From Candidatus Iainarchaeum sp. (GTDB lineage Archaea > Iainarchaeota > Iainarchaeia > Iainarchaeales > JAFGBZ01), in assembly GCA_016932875.1 (NCBI GenBank), contig JAFGBZ010000021.1:1-55133 (forward strand): a DNA stretch of 55,133 bases, in the 5' to 3' direction. Below the pieces are notes generated by a model that was given only the letters and a program-made list of their open reading frames with translations, was not told where the DNA came from and made no database searches. A program made the position numbers and the translations under genes. Below are positions 4,518-53,366 of this stretch, in pieces. Positions within the stretch are counted from its first letter, which is position 1; each line of letters starts with the position of its first letter.

Positions 4518-4572
4518 TTTTAACCCCTATATATTACCCATTCAAAAATATATAAAGTAATCGGTTAACTGA

Positions 4573-4652
4573 AAATAGTTAATTTAATCTATGAAATAGT
4601 TAATTAGTTTAACTAAAAGAGTTTTAGCAAAAAGAACAAAGTATTAGCAAAA
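4573..4652. promoter_or_regulatory. Two pairs of direct repeats upstream of the RHH gene (candidate operators)
   Basis: AAATAGTTAATT occurs at 4573-4584 and 4594-4605, 21 bp apart. TTAGCAAAA occurs at 4624-4632 and 4644-4652, 20 bp apart. Both pairs lie just upstream of the TATA-like box. Confidence 0.4.
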
Positions 4653-4658
4653 GATAGA

Positions 4659-4666
4659 TTTATATA
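4659..4666 (+). promoter_or_regulatory. TATA-box-like element for a leaderless RHH transcript
   Basis: TTTATATA centred about 27 nt upstream of ATG 4690, with no SD in between. Confidence 0.45.
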
Positions 4667-16891: not shown

Positions 16892-17293
16892 ATGAAATTA
16901 AACCGCGAAGAAATAGAATACCTTAACCTGCTTGAAAAAGAATGCAATCAAAACGCAACAGCATGCGTTATAACAGAAAATGCAGTTGTTTTCTTTGCAG
17001 AAAAAGGAAAAGTCGGAGCAGTGGTAGGAAAAAACGGAGAAAATGCAAAAAAAATGAGTTCATTAATAGGAAAACAAGTAGAAGTATTTGAATACAGCGG
17101 AAACCCAGAAGAATTTGCAAAAAAAGCATTCAATAAAACAGAAGTCGAAGCAAAAGCTTTAAAAAACGCTTTAAGCATTAAATTCGTTTCCGCAGAAGAC
17201 AAAAAAAAAGCATTAATGAATAAAAGAAGAATTTCATTGATTAAAGAGATATTAAATAAATGTTTCGGAATAAAAAAAGTTATGATTAACTAG
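16892..17293 (+). CDS. nusA: Archaeal NusA-like KH-domain protein
   Basis: Two KH-like GxxG segments (VVGKNGENAKKM). About 133 aa, in the canonical position between L30e and S12. Confidence 0.75.
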   Translation: MKLNREEIEYLNLLEKECNQNATACVITENAVVFFAEKGKVGAVVGKNGENAKKMSSLIGKQVEVFEYSGNPEEFAKKAFNKTEVEAKALKNALSIKFVSAEDKKKALMNKRRISLIKEILNKCFGIKKVMIN

Positions 17294-17358
17294 CTTTTCT
17301 TTTAAAAAAAGAAAAGCTAAGTTCGCAAAAGAAAAAGTTTTTTTGCTTCGCAAAAAAG
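17292..17358 (+). repeat. Copy A of a bipartite palindromic element (12-bp perfect hairpin plus tandem GTTCGCAAAAG-type boxes)
   Basis: AGCTTTTCTTTT-AAA-AAAAGAAAAGCT (17292-17318), followed by AAGTTCGCAAAAGAAAAAGTTTTTTTGCTTCGCAAAAAAG. 44 of 46 nt match copy C, and the full length is collinear with copy D. Confidence 0.8.
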
Positions 17359-17400
17359 AAAAAAACTTATAATTAAAATCAGAAAAAAAGGATTGATAAA

Positions 17401-17826
17401 ATGGCTAGTGGAGAATTTGCAGCAGGCTCTTTGGAAAAAAAGAGAAAAAAATGGAATAAAAAAGATCCAAGACAGAAAAAAAAGAAAAAACAAGCAAAGA
17501 AAAAAGACTTGCTTAAAGGAAGCCCTCAAGGAAGAGGAATTGTATTAGAAAAAAGAGGAGTAACTGCAAGACAGCCAAATTCAGGAATAAGAAAATGTGT
17601 TAGAGTTCAATTAATTAAAAACGGAAAGCAGTTAACTGCTTTAGCCCCAAAAGACGGCGCAATAAAATTCATTGAAGAACATGATGAAGTAATGGTTGAA
17701 GGATTAGGCGGAAGAAAACACGGAGCAAAAGGAGATCTTTGGGGAGTAAAATATAAAGTAATTAAAGTGAACAATCAATCACTTGAAATGCTTAGAACAG
17801 GAAGAAAAGAGAAAAGCAAGAGGTAA
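17401..17826 (+). CDS. rps12: Ribosomal protein uS12
   Basis: [35 protein letters not shown]...DEHDEV. Confidence 0.95.
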
Positions 17827-17830
17827 TTCG

Positions 17831-17871
17831 GCTTTCTTTTAAAAAAAGAAAGCACGGTTGCAAAGAAAAAG
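17831..17871 (+). repeat. Copy B (diverged) of the palindromic element
   Basis: GCTTTCTTTT-AAA-AAAAGAAAGC (17831-17853), then GTTGCAAAGAAAAAG (17857-17871). Confidence 0.65.
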
Positions 17872-17931
17872 CAATCCTGCTACGCAGAATTGGAAAGAAA
17901 AAATTGAAATTAAAAGTAAGAGGTAATTAAC

Positions 17932-19181: not shown

Positions 19182-21377
19182 TTGGCGAGAAAAGAAGATG
19201 TTGTTAAAATGGCGCAATTATTAATGGATACACGTGAAACTATCAGAAATATTGGAATTGTTGCACATATTGATCATGGAAAAACTACTTTAACAGATAA
19301 TTTGATTGCTTCTTCAGGTTTAATGAGCCAAGAATTAGCAGGAAAACAATTATTAATGGATTCCGAAGACCAGGAACAGGCTAGAGGAATTACAATTAAT
19401 GCAGCAAATATTTCAATAGTGCATAATTACAACAACAAAGAACATTTGATTAATATTATTGATACTCCTGGACATGTTGATTTTGGCGGAGACGTTATTA
19501 GAGCAATGCGTGCAGTTGACGGAGTTGTATTAGTTGTTGATGCAGTTGAAGGAGTAATGCCTCAAACTGAAACAGTTGTAAGACAGGCTTTAAGAGAATA
19601 TGTTAAACCGGTTTTATTTATCAATAAAGTTGACAGATTAGTGAATGAATTACAGGTAACAAAAGAAGAAATGATGAACAGATTTGTAAAAGTAATTGCT
19701 TCAGTTAATGATTTAATTAAAAAAAATGTTCCAAAAGAATTTGAATCAACATGGAAAGTAAGCCCTGAAAACGGTTCAGTTGTTTTTGGTTCAGCTTATA
19801 ATAATTGGGCAATAAGTGTTCCGCAAATGCAGAGAACTGGAGTAAAAATTGCTGATTTATATGAATACTGTAAAAATGAAAAACAAAAAGAATTAGCTCA
19901 AAAATCTCCATTATATACTGCTTTACTTGAAATGATTATCACTCATTTACCAAACCCAGTAATTGCACAAAAATACAGAATTCCAATTATCTGGGAAGGA
20001 GATCATGAAGAAGAAATATTCAAACAAATGACTTCATGTGATAAAAGTGGAAGTTTTTCAATGATGGTAACAGATGTTTCAGTTGACAAACATGCAGGAG
20101 ATATTGCAACAGGAAGAATTTATTCAGGACAAATAAAAAAAGGAATGAAAGTAAAATTAGTCGGCGGAAAAAAAGATGTTGTAATACAAAAAGTAGGAAT
20201 ATTCATGGGACCTGATTTTGTTGAAGCAGAAAGAGTTCCAGCAGGAAACATTGCAGCATTAATCGGATTAAAAGAAGTTTATACTGGAGAAACAATTGCT
20301 GAAAATGAAATACATGAATTTGAATCATTCATGACTCAAACAGAACCAGTAATAACAATTTCAATTGAAGCAAAAAACACAAAGGACTTACCAAAATTAA
20401 TTGAAGTAATAAAACAATTAACAAAAGAAGACCCAAATTTAGTGGCTTCATTAAATCAAGAAACAGGAGAACATTTGCTTTCAGGAATGGGAGAACTTCA
20501 CTTAGAAATAATGCAGTACAGAATTGAAAAACATCACAATGTTCCAGTAACAGTTTCACCACCAATAGTTGTATACCATGAAACAATAACCAAAAATGAA
20601 ACACCAGTAATTGAAGCAAAAAGCCCTAACAAACACAACAAATTCAAAATGAAAGTAGAATTATTATCAAAAGAAATCCAAGAAGGATTACGTGAACAAA
20701 GAATTAACGGAAAAATAAAACCAAAAGACAAAGAAATGATTGAAAAATTAAAGAAAGCAGGATTCAATACAGATGATTCAAAAAGAATTTGGGCTGTGCA
20801 TAACCAATGTGTTTTGCTTGATGCAACCCGTGGAATACAAGCATTACATGAAATTCGTGAATTAGTAATTCAAGGATTTACTGATGCAATGAATGAAGGA
20901 CCTTTAGCAAAAGAAAAATGCTTTGGAGTAATGATTGTATTAGAAGATGCAACATTACATGAAGATGCAATTCATCGCGGTCCAGCACAAATACTTCCTG
21001 CAATCACAAGAGGATGCTATGCATGCATGCTTTTAGCTCAACCGGTTTTATTTGAACCAAAACAAAGATTAACAATCACAGTAGCAGAAGCATACATGGG
21101 TTCAGTTTCAAAAGAATTAGGAAGCAGAAGAGCACAAATAAATGAAATGCGCACAGAAGGAGACAGTGCAATAATTATTGCTAAAGCACCAGTAAAAGAA
21201 TTAATTGGCTTTTCTCAAAGCATTCGTTCTGCAACGCAAGGAAGAGCATTATGGACAGCAGAATATTTAGGATATGAAATGCTTCCAAGAGAAATGCAAC
21301 ATGAAGTAATTAAACAGGTAAGAACAAGAAAAGGAATGGATCCAGAACCAAAACCAGCAGAATTCTTCATGGATTAA
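19182..21377 (+). CDS. fusA: Translation elongation factor aEF-2
   Basis: IRNIGIVAHIDHGKTTLTDNL, DTPGHVDFGG, and the diphthamide-region HEDAIHRGPAQ. The TTG start fits the conserved N-terminus. Confidence 0.95.
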   Translation: MARKEDVVKMAQLLMDTRETIRNIGIVAHIDHGKTTLTDNLIASSGLMSQELAGKQLLMDSEDQEQARGITINAANISIVHNYNNKEHLINIIDTPGHVDFGGDVIRAMRAVDGVVLVVDAVEGVMPQTETVVRQALREYVKPVLFINKVDRLVNELQVTKEEMMNRFVKVIASVNDLIKKNVPKEFESTWKVSPENGSVVFGSAYNNWAISVPQMQRTGVKIADLYEYCKNEKQKELAQKSPLYTALLEMIITHLPNPVIAQKYRIPIIWEGDHEEEIFKQMTSCDKSGSFSMMVTDVSVDKHAGDIATGRIYSGQIKKGMKVKLVGGKKDVVIQKVGIFMGPDFVEAERVPAGNIAALIGLKEVYTGETIAENEIHEFESFMTQTEPVITISIEAKNTKDLPKLIEVIKQLTKEDPNLVASLNQETGEHLLSGMGELHLEIMQYRIEKHHNVPVTVSPPIVVYHETITKNETPVIEAKSPNKHNKFKMKVELLSKEIQEGLREQRINGKIKPKDKEMIEKLKKAGFNTDDSKRIWAVHNQCVLLDATRGIQALHEIRELVIQGFTDAMNEGPLAKEKCFGVMIVLEDATLHEDAIHRGPAQILPAITRGCYACMLLAQPVLFEPKQRLTITVAEAYMGSVSKELGSRRAQINEMRTEGDSAIIIAKAPVKELIGFSQSIRSATQGRALWTAEYLGYEMLPREMQHEVIKQVRTRKGMDPEPKPAEFFMD

Positions 21378-21389
21378 AATCCATGAAGA
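21364..21389 (+). terminator. Perfect 12-bp palindrome with the fusA stop codon at its apex
   Basis: TCTTCATGGATT-AA-AATCCATGAAGA. The stop codon TAA is at 21375-21377. T-rich sequence follows. Confidence 0.35.
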
Positions 21390-21511: not shown

Positions 21512-22780
<1,269 letters not shown>

Positions 22781-22812
22781 CTGAATTTAATTTTTTTTTT
22801 TCAGTGAAAAAA

Positions 22813-24330: not shown

Positions 24331-24756
24331 ATGTCATTTGAATTATTTGAGCATACTGCTGATATTGGTTTAAGAGGAAAAGGTAAAACATTGGAAGAAG
24401 CTTTTTCAGAGTGCGGAAATGCTTTATTGGAAGTAATGAGTTTTCGTAATAAAACTGATGAAAAGAAATCAATTGAAGTTAATTGTTCAGCTGAAAGCAA
24501 AGAAAATCTTTTAGTGAATTACTTAAATGAATTATTATACATAATGGATTCAAAGGATTATTTATTCAAAAGAATTGAAGTTAAAAGTATTTTAGAAAAG
24601 GAAGCAAAGTTTTTCCTTAAAGCAGAATGTTTTGGTGAAAAGCTTGATTTTAGTAAACACGAGCTTAAAACAGAGGTTAAAGCAGCAACTTATTCAGGAT
24701 TAAAAATTCAGAAGAAAAACAATGAATTTATTGCTGAATGCATTGCGGATGTGTGA
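24331..24756 (+). CDS. Archease (RtcB activator)
   Basis: MSFELFEHTADIGLRGKGKTLEEAF and VKAATYSGLKI are typical archease N- and C-terminal motifs. Confidence 0.85.
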   Translation: MSFELFEHTADIGLRGKGKTLEEAFSECGNALLEVMSFRNKTDEKKSIEVNCSAESKENLLVNYLNELLYIMDSKDYLFKRIEVKSILEKEAKFFLKAECFGEKLDFSKHELKTEVKAATYSGLKIQKKNNEFIAECIADV

Positions 24757-25345: not shown

Positions 25346-26779
25346 ATGAGTGAATTAAATCAACTAGAGGGATTTGTCTGGGAAATGCCTAAAGAAGGAA
25401 ACATGAATGTTCCTGCAAGATTATATGTTGATAAAGAAATGATTGAAACATTAAAAGAAGAAGAAAAAACTAATTGGAGCACTTTAAGGCAGTTAAGGAA
25501 TGTTGCTTCTTTGCAGGGAATCCAAAAACATGCAATAGCTCTTTCAGACTGTCACCCTGGTTATGGCGCTCCAATAGGAGGAGTTGCTGCATTTGATTTA
25601 ATGGAAGGATTAATCACGTTTGGAATTGTTGGATTTGATATTAATTGCGGAGTCAGAACTTTAAGAACTAATTTAACTTCTGATGAAATTAATTCAAAGA
25701 AAAAAGAATTAAGTGAAGCTTTATTCAATGAAATTCCTGCTGGATTAGGAGTGAAAGGAAAGCTTGAATTAAAGCCAAATGAAATTGATGAATTATTAGA
25801 AAAAGGCGCTGAATATGTTGTTGAAAAAGGATTTGGATTGAAAAATGATTTAGAATTTATTGAAGAAAAAGGATGCGTTAAAGGAGCTAATCCTGAAAAT
25901 GTTTCAATGAAAGCAAAGCAAAGACAATTCAAGCAAATTGGAACTCTGGGTTCAGGAAATCATTATCTTGAAGTGCAGGAAGTTGAAGAAATATTTGATG
26001 AAAAAACAGCTAAAGCATTTGGATTAAAAGAAAAAGAATGTGTTGTTTCAATTCATTGCGGTTCACGCGCTTTAGGACATCAAATTGGAACAGATTATTT
26101 AGAGTTTCTTGAAAAAGCAGCAAAAAAATATAAAATTAAAATTCCTGATAAAGAATTAGTTTGCGCTCCAATTCAATCAAAAGAAGGACAAAAATATTTT
26201 TCAGCAGTGAATGCAGGAATTAATTGTGCTTTTGCAAATAGGCAGATGTTAACGCATTTAACAAGAACTGTTTTTTCAAAAGTTTTTGAACTCGAAGAAA
26301 AACAAATTCAAACTCTTTATGATGTAGGACATAATACTGCTAAAATTGAAAAACATGAAGGAAAAAAATTATTAGTGCAAAGAAAAGGTGCAACAAGAGG
26401 ATTTGGAGCAGGAAGAGAAGAAATTCCTGAAAAATACCGCGCATTTGGACAGCCTGTTTTAATTGGCGGAAGCATGGGAACAAATTCATTTATTTTAAGC
26501 GGAACTGAAAAAGCAATGCATGAAACTTTTGGTTCAACAATTCATGGGGCAGGTAGAAGCAAGTCAAGGGTTGCAGCAAAAAAAGAAGTTAATGCAGAAA
26601 ATGTTATTGAATCGCTTAACAGAAAAGGAATTATTGTTAAAGGACATTCAATGAAAGGGATTGAAGAAGAAGCACCTTCAGCTTACAAAAATATTCTTGA
26701 AGTAGTTGAAGTAGTGCATAAAACAGGAATAAGCAAAAAAACAGTTAAATTAAAACCATTAATCTGCATTAAAGGATAA
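25346..26779 (+). CDS. rtcB: RNA 3'-phosphate/5'-OH ligase RtcB (tRNA-splicing ligase)
   Basis: DCHPGYGAPIGGV, FDINCGVR, GSGNHYLEVQ, HCGSRALGHQ, HNTA and HGAGR motifs. No intein. Confidence 0.95.
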   Translation: MSELNQLEGFVWEMPKEGNMNVPARLYVDKEMIETLKEEEKTNWSTLRQLRNVASLQGIQKHAIALSDCHPGYGAPIGGVAAFDLMEGLITFGIVGFDINCGVRTLRTNLTSDEINSKKKELSEALFNEIPAGLGVKGKLELKPNEIDELLEKGAEYVVEKGFGLKNDLEFIEEKGCVKGANPENVSMKAKQRQFKQIGTLGSGNHYLEVQEVEEIFDEKTAKAFGLKEKECVVSIHCGSRALGHQIGTDYLEFLEKAAKKYKIKIPDKELVCAPIQSKEGQKYFSAVNAGINCAFANRQMLTHLTRTVFSKVFELEEKQIQTLYDVGHNTAKIEKHEGKKLLVQRKGATRGFGAGREEIPEKYRAFGQPVLIGGSMGTNSFILSGTEKAMHETFGSTIHGAGRSKSRVAAKKEVNAENVIESLNRKGIIVKGHSMKGIEEEAPSAYKNILEVVEVVHKTGISKKTVKLKPLICIKG

Positions 26780-34164: not shown

Positions 34165-35001
34165 TTGATTGAAAAAACATTCCTCAAACAGTCGCTTAAA
34201 AGAGTTGAATTAGAAGATTATTTAAAAAAAGAACTTGAAAAAGCAGGATTCACAAAATCAGAAATAGTGAAAACGCCTTTAGTAACAAGAATTGTAGTTA
34301 ATGTAACTCGCCCTGGATTAGCAATAGGAAAAGCAGGAGCAAACATAAAACAAATAACAACCACAATCCATGAAAGATTTGGAATTGAAAATCCACAGTT
34401 AGAAATAAAGGAAATAACTGTTCCTGAACTGGATGCACAGGCAGTAGCAAATAAAATAAAATCATTAATTGAAAGCGGTTATTCATGGAGAAGCGTTGTA
34501 TTTAAAATAGTAAAACAAATAACTGACAAAAATGCTCAAGGAGTAGAAATTGTTGTATCAGGAAAACTTGCAGGAAAAAGCGGAAGAAAAAGAAAACAAA
34601 GAATTGCATCAGGATACATGAAAAAAGTCGGTTATCAGACAAAGTTTGTTGATTATGGAAAAGCATCAGCTTATCCTAAAGTAGGAGCAATAGGAATAAA
34701 AGTAAGAATTGTAAAACCAGACACCGTATTCCCAGATAAAATAAATATTCCTGCATTGCTTGATTCAAGAGAAGCAAAAAAAGCTGAAAAAGAAATAATT
34801 GAAGAAAAACCAAAAGAAGAAAAAAAGGAAAAAGAACATAAAGAAGAAAAGAAAAAAGAAACAAAACAGGAAAAACCAAAAGAAGAAGTGAAAAAACAAG
34901 TTAAAGAAGAAAAACATAAAATCAGCGAAAAAAAGGAAAAACCAAAAGAAAAAAAAGAACATAAAGAAGAAAAGAAAAAAGAAGTGCATAAAGAAAAGTG
35001 A
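34165..35001 (+). CDS. rps3: Ribosomal protein uS3 with a Lys/Glu-rich C-terminal tail of about 80 aa
   Basis: KH domain VTRPGLAIGKAGANIKQIT and GVEIVVSGKLAG. TTG start after GGAGG. Confidence 0.92.
   Translation: MIEKTFLKQSLKRVELEDYLKKELEKAGFTKSEIVKTPLVTRIVVNVTRPGLAIGKAGANIKQITTTIHERFGIENPQLEIKEITVPELDAQAVANKIKSLIESGYSWRSVVFKIVKQITDKNAQGVEIVVSGKLAGKSGRKRKQRIASGYMKKVGYQTKFVDYGKASAYPKVGAIGIKVRIVKPDTVFPDKINIPALLDSREAKKAEKEIIEEKPKEEKKEKEHKEEKKKETKQEKPKEEVKKQVKEEKHKISEKKEKPKEKKEHKEEKKKEVHKEK
34831..34983 (+). repeat. In-frame exact 30-nt direct repeat inside the uS3 tail
   Basis: AAAGAACATAAAGAAGAAAAGAAAAAAGAA occurs at 34831-34860 and 34954-34983. The 123-nt offset equals 41 codons. Each copy encodes KEHKEEKKKE. 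Confidence 0.85.
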
Positions 35002-43774: not shown

Positions 43775-44257
43775 ATGGTGTTCATTGATTCAGGAATAGA
43801 AATAATTGGAATAACTTTGCTGTTAAGTGTTGCAAGTCAAATGCTTAGAAGAAAATATGCTCATCCAAAAGAAATGAAAATACAACAGGATAAAATGAAA
43901 GAAATAGGAAAAAAACAAAAAGAATTAATGGCTAAAACCGACGATAAATCAAAAAAAGAATCAGAAAATTTGCAGAATGAAATGTTTCAAATAATGGGAG
44001 AAATGAATGGAAAATTAATGAAAAATATGATGGTTTCAATGGTATTATTTCTTCCAGCATTATTTGTATTAAGAACATTCTATGAAGGAATTATTTTTGG
44101 TTTGCCAATACCAATTCCATGGTTTGGAGAAAACTGGAGCATTCAATTATACAATGAAACAAACTGGCTTGGATTATATGCATTGCTTTCATTAATATTT
44201 GGATTAATATTAAATATTATAATTAATATAATTGAAAAAAATAAGGAAGGGAAATAA
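43775..44257 (+). CDS. DUF106/EMC3-like membrane protein (archaeal Oxa1/YidC-superfamily candidate)
   Basis: TM helix, then a coiled-coil region (KMKEIGKKQKELMAK...LQNEMFQIMGEM), then further TM helices. Canonical position downstream of secY. ATG lies 5 nt after AGTGA. Confidence 0.65.
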   Translation: MVFIDSGIEIIGITLLLSVASQMLRRKYAHPKEMKIQQDKMKEIGKKQKELMAKTDDKSKKESENLQNEMFQIMGEMNGKLMKNMMVSMVLFLPALFVLRTFYEGIIFGLPIPIPWFGENWSIQLYNETNWLGLYALLSLIFGLILNIIINIIEKNKEGK

Positions 44258-44593
44258 ATGCCGACACCAGGAGAAAGAAGCAAGAAAAAAAAGTTTGTGC
44301 GCGTAATAAGCAAAACAAAAATAATGCATCCAAAGAAAAAAGCAAGCAAACACATTGACCCAATAACCGGAAAACCATTAGCAGGAGTGCCTCATGGAAA
44401 AAAAAGAGGAAAACTTAATATTGCAAAAACAAAAAAAAGACCTAGTGCAGTATTCGGCGGAGTATTAAGCGGAGAAAGCAGAAGAAAAGTAATTGAAGAA
44501 GCCGCAAAAGTAAAATTAGGATTAAAAAAAATTGAAGATGTTCCAATGAAAGAAAGAAAATTCGTGGAACAGGCAATGAAAAAAATAGAGTGA
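44258..44593 (+). CDS. rpl34e: Ribosomal protein eL34
   Basis: Basic 111-aa protein with ...DPITGKPLAGVPHGKK.... Canonical position. Confidence 0.75.
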   Translation: MPTPGERSKKKKFVRVISKTKIMHPKKKASKHIDPITGKPLAGVPHGKKRGKLNIAKTKKRPSAVFGGVLSGESRRKVIEEAAKVKLGLKKIEDVPMKERKFVEQAMKKIE

Positions 44594-44814
44594 TTAAAAT
44601 GGCAATAATGGAAGCAGGAAGAATATGCATTAAAACAACAGGAAAAGATGCAGGAAAAAAAATAGTAATACTTTCAGTTGAAAAAGAAAACAAAGCAGTA
44701 ATAGAAGGAATAGGAATTAAGAAAAAAAAATGCAATATAAGGCATTTGATTCCTACTGAAGAAAAAACAGAAGCAACAACAAAAGAAGGAATAATTAAAG
44801 CGCTTAAAAGGTGA
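44590..44814 (+). CDS. rpl14e: Ribosomal protein eL14
   Basis: EAGRICIKTTGKDAGKKIVILSV (KOW) and ...KKCNIRHLIPTEEK. Confidence 0.8.
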   Translation: MIKMAIMEAGRICIKTTGKDAGKKIVILSVEKENKAVIEGIGIKKKKCNIRHLIPTEEKTEATTKEGIIKALKR

Positions 44815-44819
44815 ATCAA

Positions 44820-45392
44820 TTGGGTAAAAATAAAGAAAAAGAAATGCAAGCAAAAAAAGAAGAAGGAAAAAAAGAAAAAAAAGCAGTGGTAAAAAAACCA
44901 ATGCTTGCAAAAAGAAAAGACATCGGAGCAGATGCAAGATATATTGTAAGAATAGTTAACAAAGATTTAGACGGAACAAAAACAATTAAAATGGCTTTAA
45001 CTGACATGAAAGGAATAGGAATAAGAACCGCAGACATGCTTGCAAAAGTATTTGAAAAAGAAACAGGAATAAAAAAAGAAGAATATTTAGGAAAAATACC
45101 TGAAGATAAAGATAAAGTGCTTGAAGAAATAGTATTAAATCCAGCAAAATATGGATTGCCTGAATGGACACTTAACAGAAGAAACGATGTTGAAACAGGA
45201 GAAAGCAAACACCTAGTAATGGGAGACCTTGATTTCACAAAAAGAAATGATTACCAAAGATTAAGTGAAGTAAAATCATACCGCGGAATAAGATTATCCT
45301 TAGGACTGACTGTAAGAGGGCAAAGAACCAAAAGCACTCACAGAGGAAAAGGCGGTACAGTCGGAGTACTTAAAAAGGATGCAAAAAAATAA
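44820..45392 (+). CDS. rps13: Ribosomal protein uS13 with a Lys-rich N-terminal extension
   Basis: RYIVRIVNKDLDGTKTIKMALTDMKGIGIRTADML. TTG 44820 lies 5 nt after GGTGA. The track start is GTG 44811. Confidence 0.9.
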   Translation: MGKNKEKEMQAKKEEGKKEKKAVVKKPMLAKRKDIGADARYIVRIVNKDLDGTKTIKMALTDMKGIGIRTADMLAKVFEKETGIKKEEYLGKIPEDKDKVLEEIVLNPAKYGLPEWTLNRRNDVETGESKHLVMGDLDFTKRNDYQRLSEVKSYRGIRLSLGLTVRGQRTKSTHRGKGGTVGVLKKDAKK

Positions 45393-45402
45393 GGTGAATT
45401 AA

Positions 45403-46023
45403 ATGGGCGATACAAGGAAACCAAAAAAACAATATGAAACCCCAAGAAAACGATGGGACAAAAACAGAATTGACTCAGAAAGAAAAGTAAAAAACAATTA
45501 CGGGCTTAAAAATAAAAAAGAATTAAGAAGAATAGAATTAATTATTAAAAAGAAAAGAGAAAATGCAAAAAAACTTCTTGCACTTACAACAGACCAAAGA
45601 AAAGAACGCGAACAAGAACTTCTTTCAAGCCTTGAAAGATTAGGAGTGCTTCCAAAAAACAGTTCTCTTTCAGATGTGCTTGGATTAACAGTAACAGAAT
45701 TTCTTGAAAGAAGATTTGAAACACTTGCATGGAGAAAAAATTTTGCATCAACACCAAAACAAGCAAGACAATTCATTACTCATGGACACTTAATGATTGA
45801 CGGACAAAAAATAACTGCACCAGGATATTTAGTAAAAAAAGAAGAAGAAAACAAAATTCAATGGGCAAAAAAACCATTAGAATTACAGCCTAAATTAAAA
45901 AAAGAAATAAAAAAAGAATTTGAAGAAGCAAAACCAAAAGAACAAAGCCAAAAAGAAAAATTTGAAGAAGCAAAACCTGAAGCAGAAAATACTGAACCAG
46001 AAAAAGAAGGAAAAGGTGAATAA
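45403..46023 (+). CDS. rps4: Ribosomal protein uS4 with a Lys/Glu-rich C-terminal tail
   Basis: KKQYETPRKRWDKNRIDSE...YGLKNKKELRRIE and QARQFITHGHLMIDGQKI. The tail contains a 17-nt repeat (45919-45935 and 45961-45977) encoding FEEAKP. Confidence 0.9.
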   Translation: MGDTRKPKKQYETPRKRWDKNRIDSERKVKNNYGLKNKKELRRIELIIKKKRENAKKLLALTTDQRKEREQELLSSLERLGVLPKNSSLSDVLGLTVTEFLERRFETLAWRKNFASTPKQARQFITHGHLMIDGQKITAPGYLVKKEEENKIQWAKKPLELQPKLKKEIKKEFEEAKPKEQSQKEKFEEAKPEAENTEPEKEGKGE

Positions 46024-46500
46024 ATGGGATCACAAAGAATAAAAGACGAAGCACCAATTGAATTCAAAGACATTAAAAAACCTAAAGCACTGGAAGAAAG
46101 TGAAAGAAAAAAAGAAAAAGCAAAACAAGGAATAATTCATATTTATGCTTCACACAATAATACAATAATGCTTTTAACAGATGTTACAGGCGCAGAAACA
46201 ATTGCTAAATGTTCAGGCGGAATGGTTGTAAAAGCACAGCACAAAGAAGGAAGCCCTTATGCTGCAATGAAAGTAGCAGAAATACTTGTAGAAAAAGCAA
46301 GAGAAAGAAATATTGATGAAGTTTTTGTAAAAATCCGCGGGCAAGGAGGAATACGCCCGAAATCACCAGGACAAGGAGCAGAAGCAGCAATAGTTTCATT
46401 AACAAGAAACGGAATAAGAATAATAGGAATACAAAATGTTACTCCAGTACCACATGACGGATGCAGAAGAAAAAAAAGACACAGAAGCAAAAAAAATTAA
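46024..46500 (+). CDS. rps11: Ribosomal protein uS11
   Basis: GIIHIYASHNNTIMLLTDVTGAETIAKCSGGMVVK...PYAAM. Confidence 0.92.
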   Translation: MGSQRIKDEAPIEFKDIKKPKALEESERKKEKAKQGIIHIYASHNNTIMLLTDVTGAETIAKCSGGMVVKAQHKEGSPYAAMKVAEILVEKARERNIDEVFVKIRGQGGIRPKSPGQGAEAAIVSLTRNGIRIIGIQNVTPVPHDGCRRKKRHRSKKN

Positions 46501-46509
46501 GGTGAAATA

Positions 46510-47256
46510 ATGGAAATAAAAAAATTAAGTTCAGGAAAAAATTCAGTTGATTTGCTGATAAAAGACAGCAACTATGCATTTGTTAATGCAATAAGAAGAA
46601 CAATAATGAATTCAATTCCTGTTCTTGCAGCAGAAAATATAATTATTTATGAAAATTCATCAGTTTTATTCGATGAATTTTTAGGACAAAGAATTGCAAT
46701 GCTTCCAATTAAAACAGATACAAAAAGATACAAAGAAGGAGAAACAGTAAAATTAGTTCTTGAAACAGAAGGCCCAGGAACAGTTTACTCAAAAGACATT
46801 AAATCAACAGACCCTAACTGTGAAATAGCAGAAGGAAATATTCCATTAGCAAAATTAAAAGAAGGACAAAAAATAAAACTTGAAATAGAAGCAGTAATGG
46901 GAAAAGGAAAAGATCATGTAAAATGGCAGCCAGCAAATGCCTATTACAGAAATATAGCAAAAATTTCAACAAAAGCAGGAAAAGAACAACTCAAAAAAAT
47001 AGTTGAATCATGCCCTAAAAATATTCTTGAAATAAAATCAGACAAACTTGTTTTCGCAGATGCATACAAATGCGATTTATGCGGAAAATGCAGAGATGCA
47101 AGCAATAATGAAGTAAATTTAAGCTATGATGAAAATTCATTTATTTTTACAATAGAAAACCATGGAAATATTTCAGCAGAAGAAATATTTTCAGGCGCAG
47201 TAAAAGAAATAAAAAACAAACTAGAGGAGTTAAAAAAAGAAATTAAAAAAATATAA
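46510..47256 (+). CDS. rpoD: RNA polymerase subunit D (Rpo3), retaining a 4-Cys Fe-S-type motif
   Basis: FVNAIRRTIMNSIPVLAAENIIIYENSSVLFDEFLGQRIAMLPIK. The Cys pattern is C-x19-C-x2-C-x2-C (CPKN...KCDLCGKC). Confidence 0.9.
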   Translation: MEIKKLSSGKNSVDLLIKDSNYAFVNAIRRTIMNSIPVLAAENIIIYENSSVLFDEFLGQRIAMLPIKTDTKRYKEGETVKLVLETEGPGTVYSKDIKSTDPNCEIAEGNIPLAKLKEGQKIKLEIEAVMGKGKDHVKWQPANAYYRNIAKISTKAGKEQLKKIVESCPKNILEIKSDKLVFADAYKCDLCGKCRDASNNEVNLSYDENSFIFTIENHGNISAEEIFSGAVKEIKNKLEELKKEIKKI

Positions 47257-47264
47257 TGCTTACC

Positions 47265-47442
47265 GCGGAGGTACCCAAGCGGTCAACGGGGCAGGACTTA
47301 AGCGAGCTTTTCTTTTAAAAAAAGAAAAGCTACGTTCGCAAAAGAAAAAATTTAAAAAAAAGAACGTCAGGGAAAAATTAGGACCCTTGAGAAGAGATCC
47401 TGTGGCTTAGTGCCTTCGGGAGTTCAAATCTTCCCCTCCGCA
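47265..47442 (+). tRNA. tRNA-Leu (anticodon UAA) with a 94-nt intron at the canonical 37/38 position (intron 47303-47396)
   Basis: Hand-folded. Acceptor GCGGAGG/CCTCCGC plus discriminator A. D-arm CCC..GGG. Anticodon stem CAGGA/TCCTG with loop CT-TAA-G[intron]A. Long variable arm TGGCTTAGTGCCTTC. T-arm GGGAG-TTCAAAT-CTTCC. No encoded CCA. Confidence 0.85.
47305..47350 (+). repeat. Copy C of the palindromic element, inside the tRNA-Leu intron
   Basis: AGCTTTTCTTTT-AAA-AAAAGAAAAGCT (47305-47331, identical to copy A), then ACGTTCGCAAAAGAAAAAA. Begins 2 nt after the 5' splice site. Confidence 0.85.
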
Positions 47443-47445
47443 TCG

Positions 47446-47509
47446 AGCTTTCTTTTAGAAAAAGAAAGCTACGTTCGCAAAGAAAAAAGTTTTTTGCTTT
47501 GCAAAAAAG
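47446..47509 (+). repeat. Copy D of the palindromic element, 3 nt after the tRNA-Leu 3' end
   Basis: AGCTTTCTTTT-AGA-AAAAGAAAGCT (47446-47470), then ACGTTCGCAAAGAAAAAAGTTTTTTGCTTTGCAAAAAAG. A further GTTGCAAGAAAAGAAG box lies at 47529-47544. Confidence 0.8.
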
Positions 47510-47551
47510 AATTAAAAAATAAAAAAAAGTTGCAAGAAAAGAAGTGATGAA

Positions 47552-47908
47552 ATGAATAAAAAGAAAACAACAAAAGAATTAATCCAAATATTAGAAAAAA
47601 AAGCAGAAAAAGGAAAGAATAACATTTATTCAGCTTTAGCTAAAATTCTTTCAAAGCCAAGAAAAAGCATTGCAAAAGTAAATTTATGGAAATTAAGCAA
47701 AATAGCTGAAAAAAACACAGGAAAAACATTAATTGTATGCGGAAAAATACTTGCAACAGGAAATGCTTCAGCAAAAATAAATGCATATGCATTTGAATTT
47801 TCTGAAAATGCAGCAAAAAAAATAAATGAAGCAAAAGGAAAAATAAATTTAATTGAAGAATTATTTAAAGAAAAAATCAAGGAAGAAAAACTTTTACTGG
47901 TGAAATAA
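47552..47908 (+). CDS. rpl18e: Ribosomal protein eL18
   Basis: ELIQILEKKAEKGKNNIYSALAKILSKPRKSIAKVNLWKLSKIA. Confidence 0.88.
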   Translation: MNKKKTTKELIQILEKKAEKGKNNIYSALAKILSKPRKSIAKVNLWKLSKIAEKNTGKTLIVCGKILATGNASAKINAYAFEFSENAAKKINEAKGKINLIEELFKEKIKEEKLLLVK

Positions 47909-49660: not shown

Positions 49661-49703
49661 CACCCGTCACGTCGGGCGATGGACATACTCTCCGAGCACA
49701 AGT

Positions 49704-49754
49704 GCACTGCTTCAGCAGTGCTTAATTAATTCCGCTTAACTTTTTTTATTTTTT
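49704..49754 (+). terminator. GC-rich 7-bp hairpin followed by T7 and T6 tracts after rps2
   Basis: GCACTGC-TTCA-GCAGTGC (49704-49721), then ...CTTAACTTTTTTTATTTTTT. Confidence 0.5.
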
Positions 49755-49832
49755 CAATTGCATTAACTGCTTCGCACCGGCAATTTACTCTCCAAATCTT
49801 TAAAAAGTACTCAAACCTTATTCTTCTGGTGG

Positions 49833-50675
49833 TTGGAATTGGAGAAAGAAAATGCTTTAGCCGTATTTGAAGGAAAAAAAATAAGAAAAACATGGCATAA
49901 AGAAGAATGGTTTTTTTCGGTTATTGATGTCATATGGGCGTTAACTGAAAGCAATAATCCAAGAAGATATTGGAGCGATTTAAAAATTAAATTAACTAAT
50001 GAAGGTGCATATGAGTTGTACGATAAAATCGTACAACTGAAACTTGTTTCTTCAGATAGAAAAAAATATGAAACTGACTGTGTTAACACTGAAAGTGCAT
50101 TCCGTTTAATTCAATCAATTCCTTCTCCTAAAGCTGAGCCATTCAAATTATGGCTTGCAAGAGTAGGATATGAAAGAGTGCAAGAAATAGAAAATCCTGA
50201 ATTAGCGCAGAACAGAGCAAAAGAATACTATGAACTAAAAGGATACCCTAAACCATGGATTGAAAAAAGATTAAGAGGAATTACAGTAAGACAAGAATTA
50301 ACAGATGAATGGAAAGAACGCGAAATCAAAGGAAATGAATTCGGAATTTTAACTGATGAAATTCATTCAGCAGCATTTGATGTAAACACTAAACAGCATA
50401 AAAAAATCAAAGGATTAAATGCGAAAAATAAAAACCAGAATTTACGCGATCATATGAATGATTTAGAACTAATTTTTTCAATGTTAGGTGAAAAGGTTGC
50501 AACAGAAATAACTAAAAAAGAAAACTCGCAAGGGATGAAAAAATGTAAAACTTCAGCTAAAAGAGGCGGTACTGTTGCAAAAAAAGCAAGAATTGAAACA
50601 GAAAAAGAACTAGGAAAACCAGTTGTTTCAAAAGAAAATTACCTGCATTTAAAAGAAAAGAAAAAATTAAATTAA
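49833..50675 (+). CDS. Bro-N domain / DinD-like (DNA-damage-inducible protein D family) protein
   Basis: N-terminal FEGKKIRKTWHKEEWFFSVIDVIWALTES resembles a Bro-N pattern. The C-terminal part (KGLNAKNKNQNLRDHMNDLELIF...AKRGGTVAKKARIETEKELGKPV) resembles E. coli DinD from memory. TTG start, so the exact start is uncertain. Confidence 0.6.
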   Translation: MELEKENALAVFEGKKIRKTWHKEEWFFSVIDVIWALTESNNPRRYWSDLKIKLTNEGAYELYDKIVQLKLVSSDRKKYETDCVNTESAFRLIQSIPSPKAEPFKLWLARVGYERVQEIENPELAQNRAKEYYELKGYPKPWIEKRLRGITVRQELTDEWKEREIKGNEFGILTDEIHSAAFDVNTKQHKKIKGLNAKNKNQNLRDHMNDLELIFSMLGEKVATEITKKENSQGMKKCKTSAKRGGTVAKKARIETEKELGKPVVSKENYLHLKEKKKLN

Positions 50676-50713
50676 ACCAAACAATTTAATTTAATTCAAT
50701 GCATTAATATTTC

Positions 50714-51508
50714 ATGCTCCGCGAATTAGCTGTTCAGGAAAGCTTTTATCCAAAAGGAAAAAAACTTGAATTAATGCTAAAAGAATTTTTTTTAAACACA
50801 AAAAAAGATTCATGCAATGCAGTTATTTGCCCGCATGCAGGATTAATTTATTCAGGAAAAACAGCAGCAAAAGCAATTACAGCACTAAAAAAAAGAAAAG
50901 TATACATAATATTGTGTCCTAATCATACTGGGATAGGAGAAAAAATAAGTATTTATCCTGAAGGAAAATGGATTAATCCATTAAATGAAAAAAAAAATAA
51001 AATTAATTCTTTTTTAGCTGAAAAATTAAAAGAAAAATTAAAAATTGATTTTGATGAATTAGCTCATATTGGAGAACATTCAATTGAAGTAATTCTTCCT
51101 TTTTTAAGTTATTTGAATTCAGATTATGAAATTGTTGCAATTGCTTTAGCAGAATATGATTATAAAAAATTAGCTGAACTGGGAAAAATTTTAAGTGAAT
51201 TATTTAATGAAAAAAAATTTTCTTTAATTGCTTCAAGTGATTTCACTCATTTTGAATCAGAAAAAAAAGCAAAAGAAACTGATTTCAAGGCAATTGAATT
51301 CATTAAAAAACTGGATTCAAAAGGATTTCATGAATTTGTAACTGAAAATAATGCTTCAATTTGCGGGTTTACAGGAATTACTGTTGCAATTGAATTTTCT
51401 AAAAGAATTGGCTTAAATAAAGCTGAATTAATTGAATATACTTCAAGCGCAGCAGTTACAAACGATAAAAACAATGTTGTTGCATATGCAGGAATAAAAT
51501 TTAAGTGA
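50714..51508 (+). CDS. Memo-like protein (AmmeMemoRadiSam system protein B family)
   Basis: FYPKGKKLELML..., VICPHAGLIYSGKTAAKA, ILCPNHTG, EHSIEVILPFL and SSDFTHF. Confidence 0.75.
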   Translation: MLRELAVQESFYPKGKKLELMLKEFFLNTKKDSCNAVICPHAGLIYSGKTAAKAITALKKRKVYIILCPNHTGIGEKISIYPEGKWINPLNEKKNKINSFLAEKLKEKLKIDFDELAHIGEHSIEVILPFLSYLNSDYEIVAIALAEYDYKKLAELGKILSELFNEKKFSLIASSDFTHFESEKKAKETDFKAIEFIKKLDSKGFHEFVTENNASICGFTGITVAIEFSKRIGLNKAELIEYTSSAAVTNDKNNVVAYAGIKFK

Positions 51509-51513
51509 AAAAA

Positions 51514-52209
51514 ATGGAAGTAAATAAAATTTACTGGATAACTCATCCTGCTTTTTATTTAAGCTGGACAACAGAAACATACAAAAAAAAAGATATTGAA
51601 AAATATTTTGAAAAAAGACTTTATCCTTTAATTGAACAAGCAAAAAAAGAAAACGCAGTAATTGTTTTTGTTTCAAGCCCAACATATTTTACATTAAATC
51701 CAGACAGAATAAAAAGAAACAATGAAATATCAGAACTTGAAAATGCATTTAAGAAAAAAATTAAAGAAGAACTTGGAAAAAAAGCGATAATCACCACAAG
51801 AAAAGAGCACATCGTTCCAGAACATGGGTTGGATTTAAATCCTGAATTAATAGCAAATGAAGTTAAAGCACGATTAAAAGAAAATAGATTTAAAACAAGC
51901 CATAAAACAGAAGTATATGGATTTGGAAGCGATTGGAGATATTGTTCTAGAGATTATCCTTTTTTATTTCGCGAAACAACAAAAATCAAAGGCGGTTTTC
52001 ACATCCCTGTTTGGGGCTCACTAATGAGTAAACCAAGTGAAGCAAATAAAGAAAAAAGATTGAATGCATTAAAACAAAGAAATTTATTCAGAGAATATCA
52101 AGATATTCCTAAATCAAGAGTTTATTCTCCTGAATCGCTTTCCCAAAACTATAAAGCCCGCAAAAATCACCAAAAATCAAAGAAACCAAAAGCCTTAAAA
52201 CCACGTTAA
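51514..52209 (+). CDS. Hypothetical protein, translationally coupled to the Memo-like gene
   Basis: ATG lies 5 nt after AGTGA, which overlaps the upstream stop codon. No family recognised. Basic C-terminal tail. Confidence 0.5.
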   Translation: MEVNKIYWITHPAFYLSWTTETYKKKDIEKYFEKRLYPLIEQAKKENAVIVFVSSPTYFTLNPDRIKRNNEISELENAFKKKIKEELGKKAIITTRKEHIVPEHGLDLNPELIANEVKARLKENRFKTSHKTEVYGFGSDWRYCSRDYPFLFRETTKIKGGFHIPVWGSLMSKPSEANKEKRLNALKQRNLFREYQDIPKSRVYSPESLSQNYKARKNHQKSKKPKALKPR

Positions 52210-52287
52210 AATGCTTTTAAATGCTTTTTTGAAGCAAAATAAGCAAAAAAAGGGCTTTTTCTTAATTTAATCACTGAAAGCAGTAAA

Positions 52288-52295
52288 TTTAAATA
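52288..52295 (+). promoter_or_regulatory. TATA box upstream of the TrmB-like regulator gene
   Basis: TTTAAATACTTGT, the same 13-mer as at 27366. Confidence 0.4.
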
Positions 52296-52355
52296 CTTGT
52301 CTTGTGCTAATATATAGTATATTAAAAATACGTCATTTTAGGCGGGTTGGCTTCA

Positions 52356-53105: not shown

Positions 53106-53366
53106 TTAGAGATATGCTTCATCGTGATGAACAAATTTATCAAAAATCACAGTATCTTCTTCTACTTTAAACATTAATACATAGCTTCCAATGTGAACTC
53201 TTTTGAATTCATTTAATGGTTTTCTTAAATTTTTAAAGTGATGGATTGTTTGTTTATCTAATTCTGCTATTTGAATTATTTTTTTTTGAAGCGCGTTGAA
53301 TAAAGAAATGTCTTTTTTCTTTAGTTTCTTCAAAGTGTCTTCTAAAGCAGAGACATCTATTTTCAA
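53106..53366 (-). CDS. RelE/ParE-superfamily toxin
   Basis: ...LRKPLNEFKRVHIGSYVLMFKVEEDTVIFDKFVHHDEAY. 86 aa, with a 4-nt overlap with the upstream ORF. Confidence 0.65.
   Translation of the reverse strand: MKIDVSALEDTLKKLKKKDISLFNALQKKIIQIAELDKQTIHHFKNLRKPLNEFKRVHIGSYVLMFKVEEDTVIFDKFVHHDEAYL

Follow-up and report, generated by a model that had tools for sequence, protein, structure and literature searches.

A dispersed two-hairpin repeat inside the intron and behind the 3' end of a tRNA-Leu(UAA) gene of Candidatus Iainarchaeum

In contig JAFGBZ010000021.1 of Candidatus Iainarchaeum sp. (GCA_016932875.1; 55,133 nt, analysed as a whole and hereafter called the window; G+C 30.7%), a tRNA-Leu(UAA) gene lies between rpoD and rpl18e, 8 nt past the end of the former and 109 nt before the latter; its intron contains one copy, and its 3' end is directly followed by another, of a short hairpin element of which two further copies flank the S12 gene on its two sides. 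The four copies, named A to D, and the features that frame them are the following:

17290-17358, plus strand: copy A, behind nusA (hairpin 1 17292-17318, tail 17319-17337, hairpin 2 17338-17358; covariance model, 92 bits)
17829-17892, plus strand: copy B, behind the S12 gene (hairpin 1 17831-17853, tail 17854-17871, hairpin 2 17872-17892; covariance model, 71.2 bits)
17913-17928, plus strand: 16-nt duplicate (AAAGTAAGAGGTAATT) of the S12 3' end (17813-17828), from comparison with the related genome JBMXPR01
46510-47256, plus strand: rpoD (RpoD, MBN2127055.1; Pfam)
47265-47302, plus strand: 5' exon of tRNA-Leu(UAA), positions 1-37 (ARAGORN -i; sequence kept in all relatives)
47303-47396, plus strand: canonical 37/38 intron, 94 nt, three hairpins (ARAGORN -i, folding)
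47303-47350, plus strand: copy C, within the intron (CG foot, hairpin 1 of 12 bp 47305-47331, purine tail 47332-47350; covariance model, 74.9 bits)
47397-47442, plus strand: 3' exon of tRNA-Leu(UAA), ending in discriminator A47442, CCA not encoded (ARAGORN -i)
47444-47509, plus strand: copy D, behind the tRNA (hairpin 1 47446-47470, tail 47471-47489, hairpin 2 47490-47509; covariance model, 84.9 bits)
47552-47908, plus strand: rpl18e, the first gene beyond copy D (Pfam, synteny)

When introns are allowed, ARAGORN calls the tRNA gene at 47265-47442 with a 94-nt intron, whose removal leaves an 84-nt tRNA with a good cloverleaf; default ARAGORN and default Rfam scans return no tRNA at all across the window, the gene being invisible to them because of that intron, and since the only tRNA gene of the window is missed in this way, the tRNA complements of such DPANN metagenome-assembled genomes (MAGs) are under-counted. 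As AG is duplicated at both intron borders, three placements are equivalent; the canonical one, between positions 37 and 38, yields 47303-47396, and this position, together with the normal cloverleaf after removal, identifies an archaeal canonical 37/38 intron, found at the same position in the orthologues. The archaeal bulge-helix-bulge (BHB) motif consists of two 3-nt bulges separated by a 4-bp helix, with helices flanking them. In this tRNA-Leu, the 3' bulge (AG/A) stands beside the anticodon stem and the central helix has 3 bp (CUU/AAG) plus an A·G mismatch, while the 5' splice site lies in a loop that lacks a clean outer helix and adjoins hairpin 1 of copy C, so that the motif is a relaxed one (bulge-helix-loop); the introns of the two closest relatives show a complete BHB motif with the identical A·G mismatch. 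The first-pass annotation of this DNA had proposed folding the pre-tRNA, and the relaxed motif appears workable: with the cloverleaf, the anticodon stem, the CUU/AAG helix and the AG/A bulge enforced, the energy is -55.7 kcal/mol, against an unconstrained minimum of -58.1. As regards a box C/D guide RNA, 47303-47396 contains neither a C box (RUGAUGA) nor a D box (CUGA), and no C/D family of Rfam matches. DPANN endonucleases with an L3 loop have been linked to relaxed splice motifs and disrupted tRNA genes (PMC5829648); no splicing endonuclease gene lies within the 55 kb of the window, the part of the MAG that was searched.

The element is a repeat of about 65 nt, composed of a first hairpin, a purine tail and a second hairpin. 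In hairpin 1 (10-13 bp) a U-rich 5' arm, GCUUU(U)CUUUU, and an A-rich 3' arm enclose a loop of 3 nt, and the foot extends across a bulged A; the tail (GCAAAAGAAAAAG; consensus A(C/A)G(T/G)T(C/G)GCAAA(A)GAAAAAG) is conserved, purine-rich and unpaired, its GCAAA(A)GAAAAAG portion being kept in all subtypes and mostly displayed in a helix-closed loop; hairpin 2 (8-9 bp, with a TTC, TTT or TAC loop) varies in sequence from copy to copy. Copy C is without hairpin 2, and CGTTC/GAACG instead closes its tail into a loop. A non-repetitive core, GCTA(A/C)GTTCGC, is common to the copies. The foot of hairpin 1 is CT...AG in the copies behind protein genes (copy A and a copy behind asnS in the related MAG JBDRGO01), where it supplies the TAG stop codon (that of nusA, 17291-17293, in copy A), and CG...CG at the tRNA-associated copies (C, D and a tRNA-Tyr intron copy of JBDRGO01), a rule which holds in both genomes. 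Two or three subtypes coexist within one genome, and the type of hairpin 1 and the class of hairpin 2 are differently combined in A, B and the asnS copy, as in mosaics of modules. A covariance model was built from seven copies; in the alignment of nine matches to it, 95% of the cells are paired, compared with at most 65% when the partners are slid, and 12 of 22 pairs show changes on both sides, figures which lean toward structure because the alignment was fitted to the model. Searches of the whole window and of both element regions against Rfam, at gathering as well as E-value thresholds, matched no family.

That the same element sits in the tRNA-Leu intron and right after the tRNA 3' end had been noticed in the first-pass annotation, and both the copy alignments and the model bear this out. 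Of the 46 positions of copy C (47305-47350), 44 agree with copy A (17292-17337), exactly as described there, and the identical prefix is present too, at a length of 28 rather than 27 nt; copy D (47446-47509) is indeed collinear with copy A (59/64 positions, three 1-nt gaps), and its first base, 47446, does fall 3 nt after discriminator A47442. If the paired CG foot is counted, copy C begins with the first base of the intron and the trailer copy at +2. Copy B, absent from that annotation and located by a hairpin scan, begins 2 nt past the S12 stop codon, and its subtype resembles the tRNA-Leu intron copy of JBMXPR01. The core 14-mer GCTACGTTCGCAAA, with up to 2 mismatches, is matched three times against 0.16 expected (0/100 shuffles reach 3), and each copy forms a more stable fold than its shuffled controls (z from -2.7 to -3.7). 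Over the window the model finds no copy beyond A, B, C and D, and in 185 kb of sequence it adds only a copy in the trailer of the JBDRGO01 tRNA-Tyr (E = 6e-6) and a reversed module in the intron of a distant tRNA-Leu (L012; E = 2e-3). Positions 44202-47430 of the window, intron copy included, are reproduced without a difference in an independent Logan assembly of SRR13394437. All copies are oriented in sense and abut the end of the preceding gene or exon (0-4 nt); the eight independent placements are all in sense (8/8; two-sided binomial, about 0.008).

A strict pattern scan, with one genome per species, returned two loci, both in JBDRGO01, whose proteins share 79% (AsnRS) and 85% (EF-2) identity with those of the window MAG. 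At the asnS locus (L002) the element begins at the TAG stop of asnS and a convergent gene lies opposite; at the tRNA-Tyr(GUA) locus (L003) a 126-nt intron at 37/38 carries the element 4 nt past the 5' splice site, and the diverged copy detected by the model directly follows the discriminator, again with a convergent gene opposite, so that the arrangement of intron plus trailer recurs at a different tRNA in a different genome. Non-orthologous copies of the window and of JBDRGO01 are identical at 46-47 of 48 nt (46/48 for the introns of tRNA-Leu and tRNA-Tyr), compared with 66% at EF-2 third codon positions and about 60% in the orthologous EF-2/EF-1α spacer, taken as near-neutral references; such a difference calls for either strong purifying selection or recent (horizontal) spread. 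The tRNA-Tyr gene itself (L003 3143-3341) has the archaeal C1-G72 pair and an unusual T-loop, CGCACAT instead of TTCRANY, and is detected by ARAGORN only once the 126-nt intron is removed by hand; in its leader (L003 3077-3133), 66 nt upstream, there is a 13-nt duplicate of the tRNA 5' end (CCCGCCTTAGCTT) followed by an inverted copy (GCTAAGGCAGG), the pair forming a leader hairpin, and this duplicate could be a relic of recombination or integration at tRNA-Tyr. The convergent gene downstream encodes a Fic/DOC protein.

The comparison of tRNA-Leu(UAA) genes among relatives, also suggested at the outset, was run on orthologues collected through RpoD homologues and the exon pattern in ten lineages; all ten have the 37/38 intron, 39-123 nt long, and in most of them it contains a similar hairpin and tail. 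Two further loci, L019 and L020, do not extend as far as a tRNA. In the closest relatives, JBMXPR01 (L004; 67-nt intron) and a JGI contig (L005; 61 nt), a homologous hairpin 1 and tail lie 6-7 nt from the splice site, between the strands of the BHB motif; in two distant lineages (L008 and L012, about 48-52% G+C) the intron has a hairpin of U-arm and A-arm and a purine tail. The universal intron and these hairpins show that both are old, and the intron module is thus ancestral; the module of the window intron has the same subtype as the dispersed copies. In L012 (1165-1287; 49% G+C), the 123-nt intron holds two hairpin-plus-purine-tail modules in opposite orientations and folds as one long palindrome (-60.6 kcal/mol). 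Dispersed copies were seen only in the AT-rich clade, none being found in L014, L015 and L018 (a lineage of 52-55% G+C); a scan of metagenome contigs with a 21-nt core gave no match, and the element was unmatched in viral contigs (three scans), so there is no sign of a viral carrier. The element belongs to a small dispersed two-hairpin family of an AT-rich clade of Iainarchaeia (Diapherotrites).

Orthologous sites differ in the presence of the element. Copy D is absent from the tRNA-Leu loci L004, L005 and L006, where rpl18e follows the tRNA after 21-66 nt, and relative to the closest relatives it is a clean 67-nt lineage-specific insertion. Copy B is absent at the S12 locus of JBMXPR01 (L016), where S12 and S7 are 5 nt apart and AAGAGGTAATTAAATTG is uninterrupted; the window has here a 100-nt insertion (17829-17928), which terminates in the 16-nt duplicate of the S12 3' end and by it re-creates the S7 Shine-Dalgarno sequence and its spacing, so that copy B, too, is a lineage-specific insertion, with a 16-nt target duplication. 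In L016 another element stands after S12 codon 6, between the two halves of a perfect 52-nt tandem duplication (4518-4665) that comprises the S12 leader and the first six codons; from the upstream pseudo-start a 35-codon open reading frame (ORF) runs through the element and ends at a TAA that overlaps the real ATG (TAATG). At the TAG of asnS, JBMXPR01 has no more than an 8-bp stem resembling hairpin 1, and behind nusA a diverged U/A hairpin. Comparison with relatives thus shows insertion or duplication as the origin of copies, and an exchange of modules among them. The suggestion that the intron arose from, or was expanded by, a mobile or duplicated element therefore stands in part: copy D, the dispersed family and the insertion-type rearrangements elsewhere agree with it, whereas the intron, present in ten lineages and with its hairpin already in L004, L005, L008 and L012, is not of such origin.

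Several observations bear on how the copies are transcribed. In L004, rpl18e starts 21 nt after the tRNA and must therefore be co-transcribed with it; in the window, S7 and the L18e operon lie downstream of copies B and D with no TATA-like box in between, and need read-through. Native terminators consist of a hairpin followed by a T-run, for example after EF-1α (22755-22800); no U-run comes after either hairpin of the element on the sense strand, so that it lacks the form of an intrinsic terminator, and on the antisense strand hairpin 2 is followed by CUUUUUCUUU and looks like one. Runs of T6-T7 do occur on the sense strand of copies A and D and of the tRNA-Tyr intron copy. Unique hairpins overlapping the stop codon stand at the ends of two other, highly expressed genes of the window, EF-2 (21364-21389; 12-bp stem with TAA in the loop) and EF-1α (22755-22800; 15-bp stem followed by T11), and gene-end hairpins therefore seem a general habit of this genome.

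With a probability of roughly 0.55, we regard the element as a small dispersed hairpin repeat of the kind of repetitive extragenic palindromes (REPs) or miniature inverted-repeat transposable elements (MITEs), transcribed, and tolerated or used in spacers and intron loops. An old canonical tRNA-Leu(UAA) intron, whose loop already contained hairpin and tail, was joined by a second, full-length copy inserted directly behind the tRNA; to judge from the operon context, such copies would lie inside transcription units of translation genes and be transcribed in sense within pre-tRNA or polycistronic RNA. Each copy is predicted to fold on itself and so not to tie up the tRNA body, the splice-site helix or the ribosome-binding site downstream. 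Copies would be tolerated only where the downstream gene is not cut off from its signals and only in the orientation that permits read-through; those that survive would be confined to intron loops and to the upstream margin of spacers, and oriented so that no hairpin is followed by a U-run. With such a rule of tolerance, no function need be assumed to account for the orientation of the copies or for their location at RNA "ends". The hairpins may also protect RNA ends generated by RNase Z, the splicing endonuclease or intercistronic cleavage, or block antisense transcription. Some role (end protection, processing, antisense insulation), together with a trans-acting partner, is suggested by the high degree of conservation, the covariation in the foot and the hairpins that keep their position. 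The earlier proposal that the hairpin caps RNA 5' ends made by endonucleolytic cuts may hold: the pattern recurs at the tRNA-Tyr of a second genome; the same hairpin also adjoins mRNA stop codons, sites without a known cut, and in the relatives it lies 6-7 nt inside the intron.

Other facts weigh against the explanation by a dispersed repeat. Terminal inverted repeats and a regular target-site duplication are lacking, and no transposase was seen in the sequence scanned, which was less than the whole genomes; the apparent copy number is low (2 strict copies in the whole JBDRGO01 assembly, diverged ones not counted); the identity of 46-47/48 nt would need either strong purifying selection, and hence a real function and a trans-acting factor, or recent horizontal spread; hairpins similar to hairpin 1 hold their position after nusA and asnS in relatives, which fits function better than chance insertion; and the T6-T7 runs on the sense strand of some copies and introns would permit some termination. 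The association with tRNA genes remains the least explained point: of the 7 copies in two genomes, 4 lie within intron-containing tRNAs or directly after them, compared with a chance estimate of about 0.02 per genome, itself a rough figure (about 200 nt out of roughly 3-4 kb of spacer).

Among the alternatives, the one that survives best, although we hold it to be unlikely, is that the element serves a translation regulon as a dedicated cis-acting motif of RNA or DNA, recognised by a specific protein either as hairpin and purine tail in the transcripts, or as palindromic DNA, of nusA-S12-S7, L18e, asnS, tRNA-Leu and tRNA-Tyr, its copies being due to function and not to mobility. The identity of 46-47/48 nt between two genomes against 60-66% at near-neutral sites, the conservation of a single-stranded tail mostly displayed in a helix-closed loop, the hairpins kept in position after nusA and asnS and the deep conservation of hairpin and tail in tRNA-Leu introns would all be expected of such a motif; all host genes belong, moreover, to the translation apparatus, but the sample of loci is biased in that direction, since the window and the fetched loci are ribosomal regions. 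A fixed regulatory site sits uneasily with the presence/absence differences at orthologous positions, with two copies bordered by flanking duplications, with two or three subtypes in one genome and with the freedom of hairpin 2 to vary in sequence; no candidate binding protein is known, and Rfam gave no match.

The association with tRNA genes keeps alive a further, improbable explanation, in which the tRNA-Leu intron is the master copy: the excised module, probably circularised by RtcB, would have been copied at the RNA or DNA level into transcribed spacers and the tRNA-Tyr intron. Two genes in the window provide the ligation machinery for the tRNA-Leu intron:

24331-24756, plus strand: archease (Pfam)
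25346-26779, plus strand: RtcB tRNA-splicing ligase (Pfam)

Both sit close to the EF-1α/S10 cluster; in JBMXPR01 the RtcB gene (L016 14240-17203) contains an intein, as does EF-2 in several related lineages. A master copy in the intron agrees, besides the presence of RtcB and archease, with the module being oldest and most widespread there, even in lineages of 48-52% G+C, with the restriction of dispersed copies to the AT-rich clade, and with the 4/7 copies in or behind intron-containing tRNA genes. Against it, the dispersed copies have a hairpin 2, which the tRNA-Leu intron copies lack, and nothing of the 3' portion of the intron; BHB motifs are missing around the non-tRNA copies, a reverse transcriptase is not known here, and the resemblance to the distant introns is of low complexity and could be convergent. 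A stronger version, of similarly low probability, makes the intron module a functional RNA that has a trans-acting partner of its own and originates in the intron; once excised, and probably persisting as a stable circle, the intron would have been copied into tRNA trailers, the intron of another tRNA and the mRNA spacers of translation genes. Alternatively, the U-tract would give the intron the role of an attenuator, controlling the balance between tRNA 5' halves, mature tRNA-Leu and the L18e operon downstream. If true, the functional-RNA version would tie the dispersal of a non-coding element to the machinery of tRNA splicing.

It is highly improbable that the element is a terminator-plus-promoter cassette, in which hairpin 1 and the T-tract end the upstream transcript and the A-rich tail, acting as B recognition element and TATA box, restarts transcription, so that tRNA-Leu would be an adjacent "split" tRNA whose halves arise as separate products and are then joined in trans. 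In its favour, every copy begins 0-4 nt past a gene or exon end, the 5' arm contains T4CT4, a TATA-like CTTATAAT (17364-17371) comes after copy A, and beyond the tail of copy C stands TTTAAAAAAAA (47351-47361), some 25 nt ahead of the stretch pairing with the anticodon loop. Against it, the promoters of the window genome have clear TTATATA or TTTATAT boxes; inside the element there is no TATA box, and copy A is the only one with a TATA-like box behind it, none of the genome's type being present after B or D or in the introns of L003, L004 and L005. The asnS copy and the tRNA-Tyr trailer copy, moreover, face convergent genes; in the absence of a conserved TATA box, these two cases defeat both the promoter and the split-tRNA readings. 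S7 and L18e rely on read-through (in relatives L18e follows the tRNA by about 20 nt, hence co-transcription), the sense strand is without the hairpin-then-T-run form of native terminators, and the tRNA halves are contiguous, with an intron that can form a workable splice-site motif. The element is not a promoter, and tRNA-Leu is not a split gene; the earlier idea of a separately transcribed 3' half is not supported. Chance similarity of low-complexity AT-rich palindromes, conceivable in a genome of 30.7% G+C with many A-rich low-complexity repeats, is refuted by the 14-mer test (3 matches against 0.16 expected), the alignments of C (44/46) and D (collinear over 64 nt) with A, the specific non-repetitive core, and model E-values of 1e-11 to 1e-15 with independent matches in a second genome.

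Some narrower proposals were tried and rejected. Strand asymmetry of T-runs as the cause of the orientation bias does not hold, as A, D and the tRNA-Tyr intron copy have T6-T7 in sense and only the hairpin-plus-U-run is strand-specific; attenuator-like pairing of the tail with the U-arm of hairpin 2 or hairpin 1 is impossible in B and the asnS copy, and tail and U-arm do not covary; hairpin 2 is not copied from the target at each insertion, since B, the asnS copy and the L016 copy share a hairpin-2 class at unrelated sites; and a mobile BHB intron spliced from mRNAs found no support, a scan for BHB motifs around A, B, D and the asnS and L016 copies yielding low-complexity coincidences only. 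Elsewhere in the window, a Lys/Glu-rich low-complexity coding repeat (AAAGAAGAAAAG-type, 9-15-nt register; 34780-34990), at the 3' end of ORF 34165-35001, dominates the direct-repeat output. About 2.7 kb (49661-52340) separate S2 from the TrmB-family regulator that directly follows it in L004; this interval, possibly a small insertion, comprises a BRO-N domain gene (49833-50675), a Memo-like gene, an ORF of unknown function and 172 nt of spacer, comparatively rich in G+C, in which there are T-runs and a GC hairpin of 7 bp. A gene for a ParE-like toxin is found at 53106-53366.

The content of a canonical archaeal tRNA intron is here common to non-tRNA sequence (trailers, mRNA spacers) and to a tRNA intron of another genome, which bears on how tRNA introns grow and exchange sequence; the element is at the same time a small, well-defined candidate for RNA processing or insulation in an uncultured phylum, conserved far above background. 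Literature searches retrieved no description of such an element in Diapherotrites or in DPANN tRNA introns.

Among known systems, the bacterial REP and bacterial interspersed mosaic elements (BIME; REPIN) and the Correia elements of Neisseria are dispersed extragenic repeats, short and imperfectly palindromic, which lie just 3' of genes or between cistrons and share their transcripts; their RNA hairpins can stabilise or process transcripts, and they show subfamilies, mosaics and presence/absence differences between relatives. The present element is likewise a dispersed imperfect palindrome near gene 3' ends, with subtypes, mosaics and presence/absence differences, and has the extragenic 20-40-nt imperfect palindromes near gene 3' ends that characterise the REP type, its transcription being deduced from operon context; it differs in being archaeal (DPANN), in its very few copies and in its presence also inside tRNA introns. 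REPs have a conserved GTAG head recognised by the REP-associated tyrosine transposase (RAYT) and occur in tens to hundreds of copies per genome, and Correia elements have terminal inverted repeats and a TA duplication; the element has neither of the latter, its head is C(G/T)AGCT or CGGC and not GTAG, its copies amount to 4 in the 55-kb window and 2 strict matches in the whole of JBDRGO01 (diverged ones not counted), and no RAYT or other transposase was identified, no genome-wide search for RAYT having been made. It fits the REP-like description in location and structure, and apparently not in copy number or in a known mobilising enzyme.

Small, non-coding, structured repeats that insert into non-coding DNA are known in Archaea as well, such as the SM elements of Sulfolobus, which are MITEs, and the palindrome-associated transposable elements (PATEs) of Haloquadratum. 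The element resembles them in all these respects; unlike them, it has irregular flanking duplications (16 nt at B, 52 nt in L016, none at D) instead of one of fixed length, no known parent insertion sequence, ends that are not inverted copies of each other (the hairpins being internally palindromic), and copies that all have one orientation and abut the end of the preceding gene.

As far as PMC4090602 recounts it, transposition of tRNA introns in Thermoproteales moves a whole BHB-bounded intron between tRNA genes (Fujishima et al. 2010); near-identical sequence in the introns of different tRNAs is found here too (window tRNA-Leu and JBDRGO01 tRNA-Tyr, 46/48 nt), but measured against that account the shared unit is an internal module only, which also occurs in mRNA spacers and tRNA trailers, and the copies outside tRNAs are without a flanking BHB motif. 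With the split tRNA genes of Nanoarchaeum equitans (Randau et al. 2005, again to the extent described in PMC4090602) the tRNA-Leu gene shares the break at 37/38, a relaxed splice motif and a gene-end-like element after the 5' half; relative to what is described there, its halves are contiguous, no separate promoter serves the 3' half (no conserved TATA-like box exists in the intron of the window or those of L003, L004 and L005), a GC-rich complementary leader and trailer are lacking, and its orthologues are ordinary intron-containing genes. By these defining features the element is neither a MITE nor a mobile BHB intron, nor does it make a split tRNA. In Caldiarchaeum subterraneum a tRNA gene has been disrupted by an integrating 1.8-kb element which encodes a recombinase, with tRNA fragments scattered (PMC3293823); the present case concerns a 65-nt non-coding hairpin module and a tRNA gene that is intact, and it has in common with Caldiarchaeum that the content of a tRNA intron has been altered by foreign or mobile DNA within a short evolutionary time.

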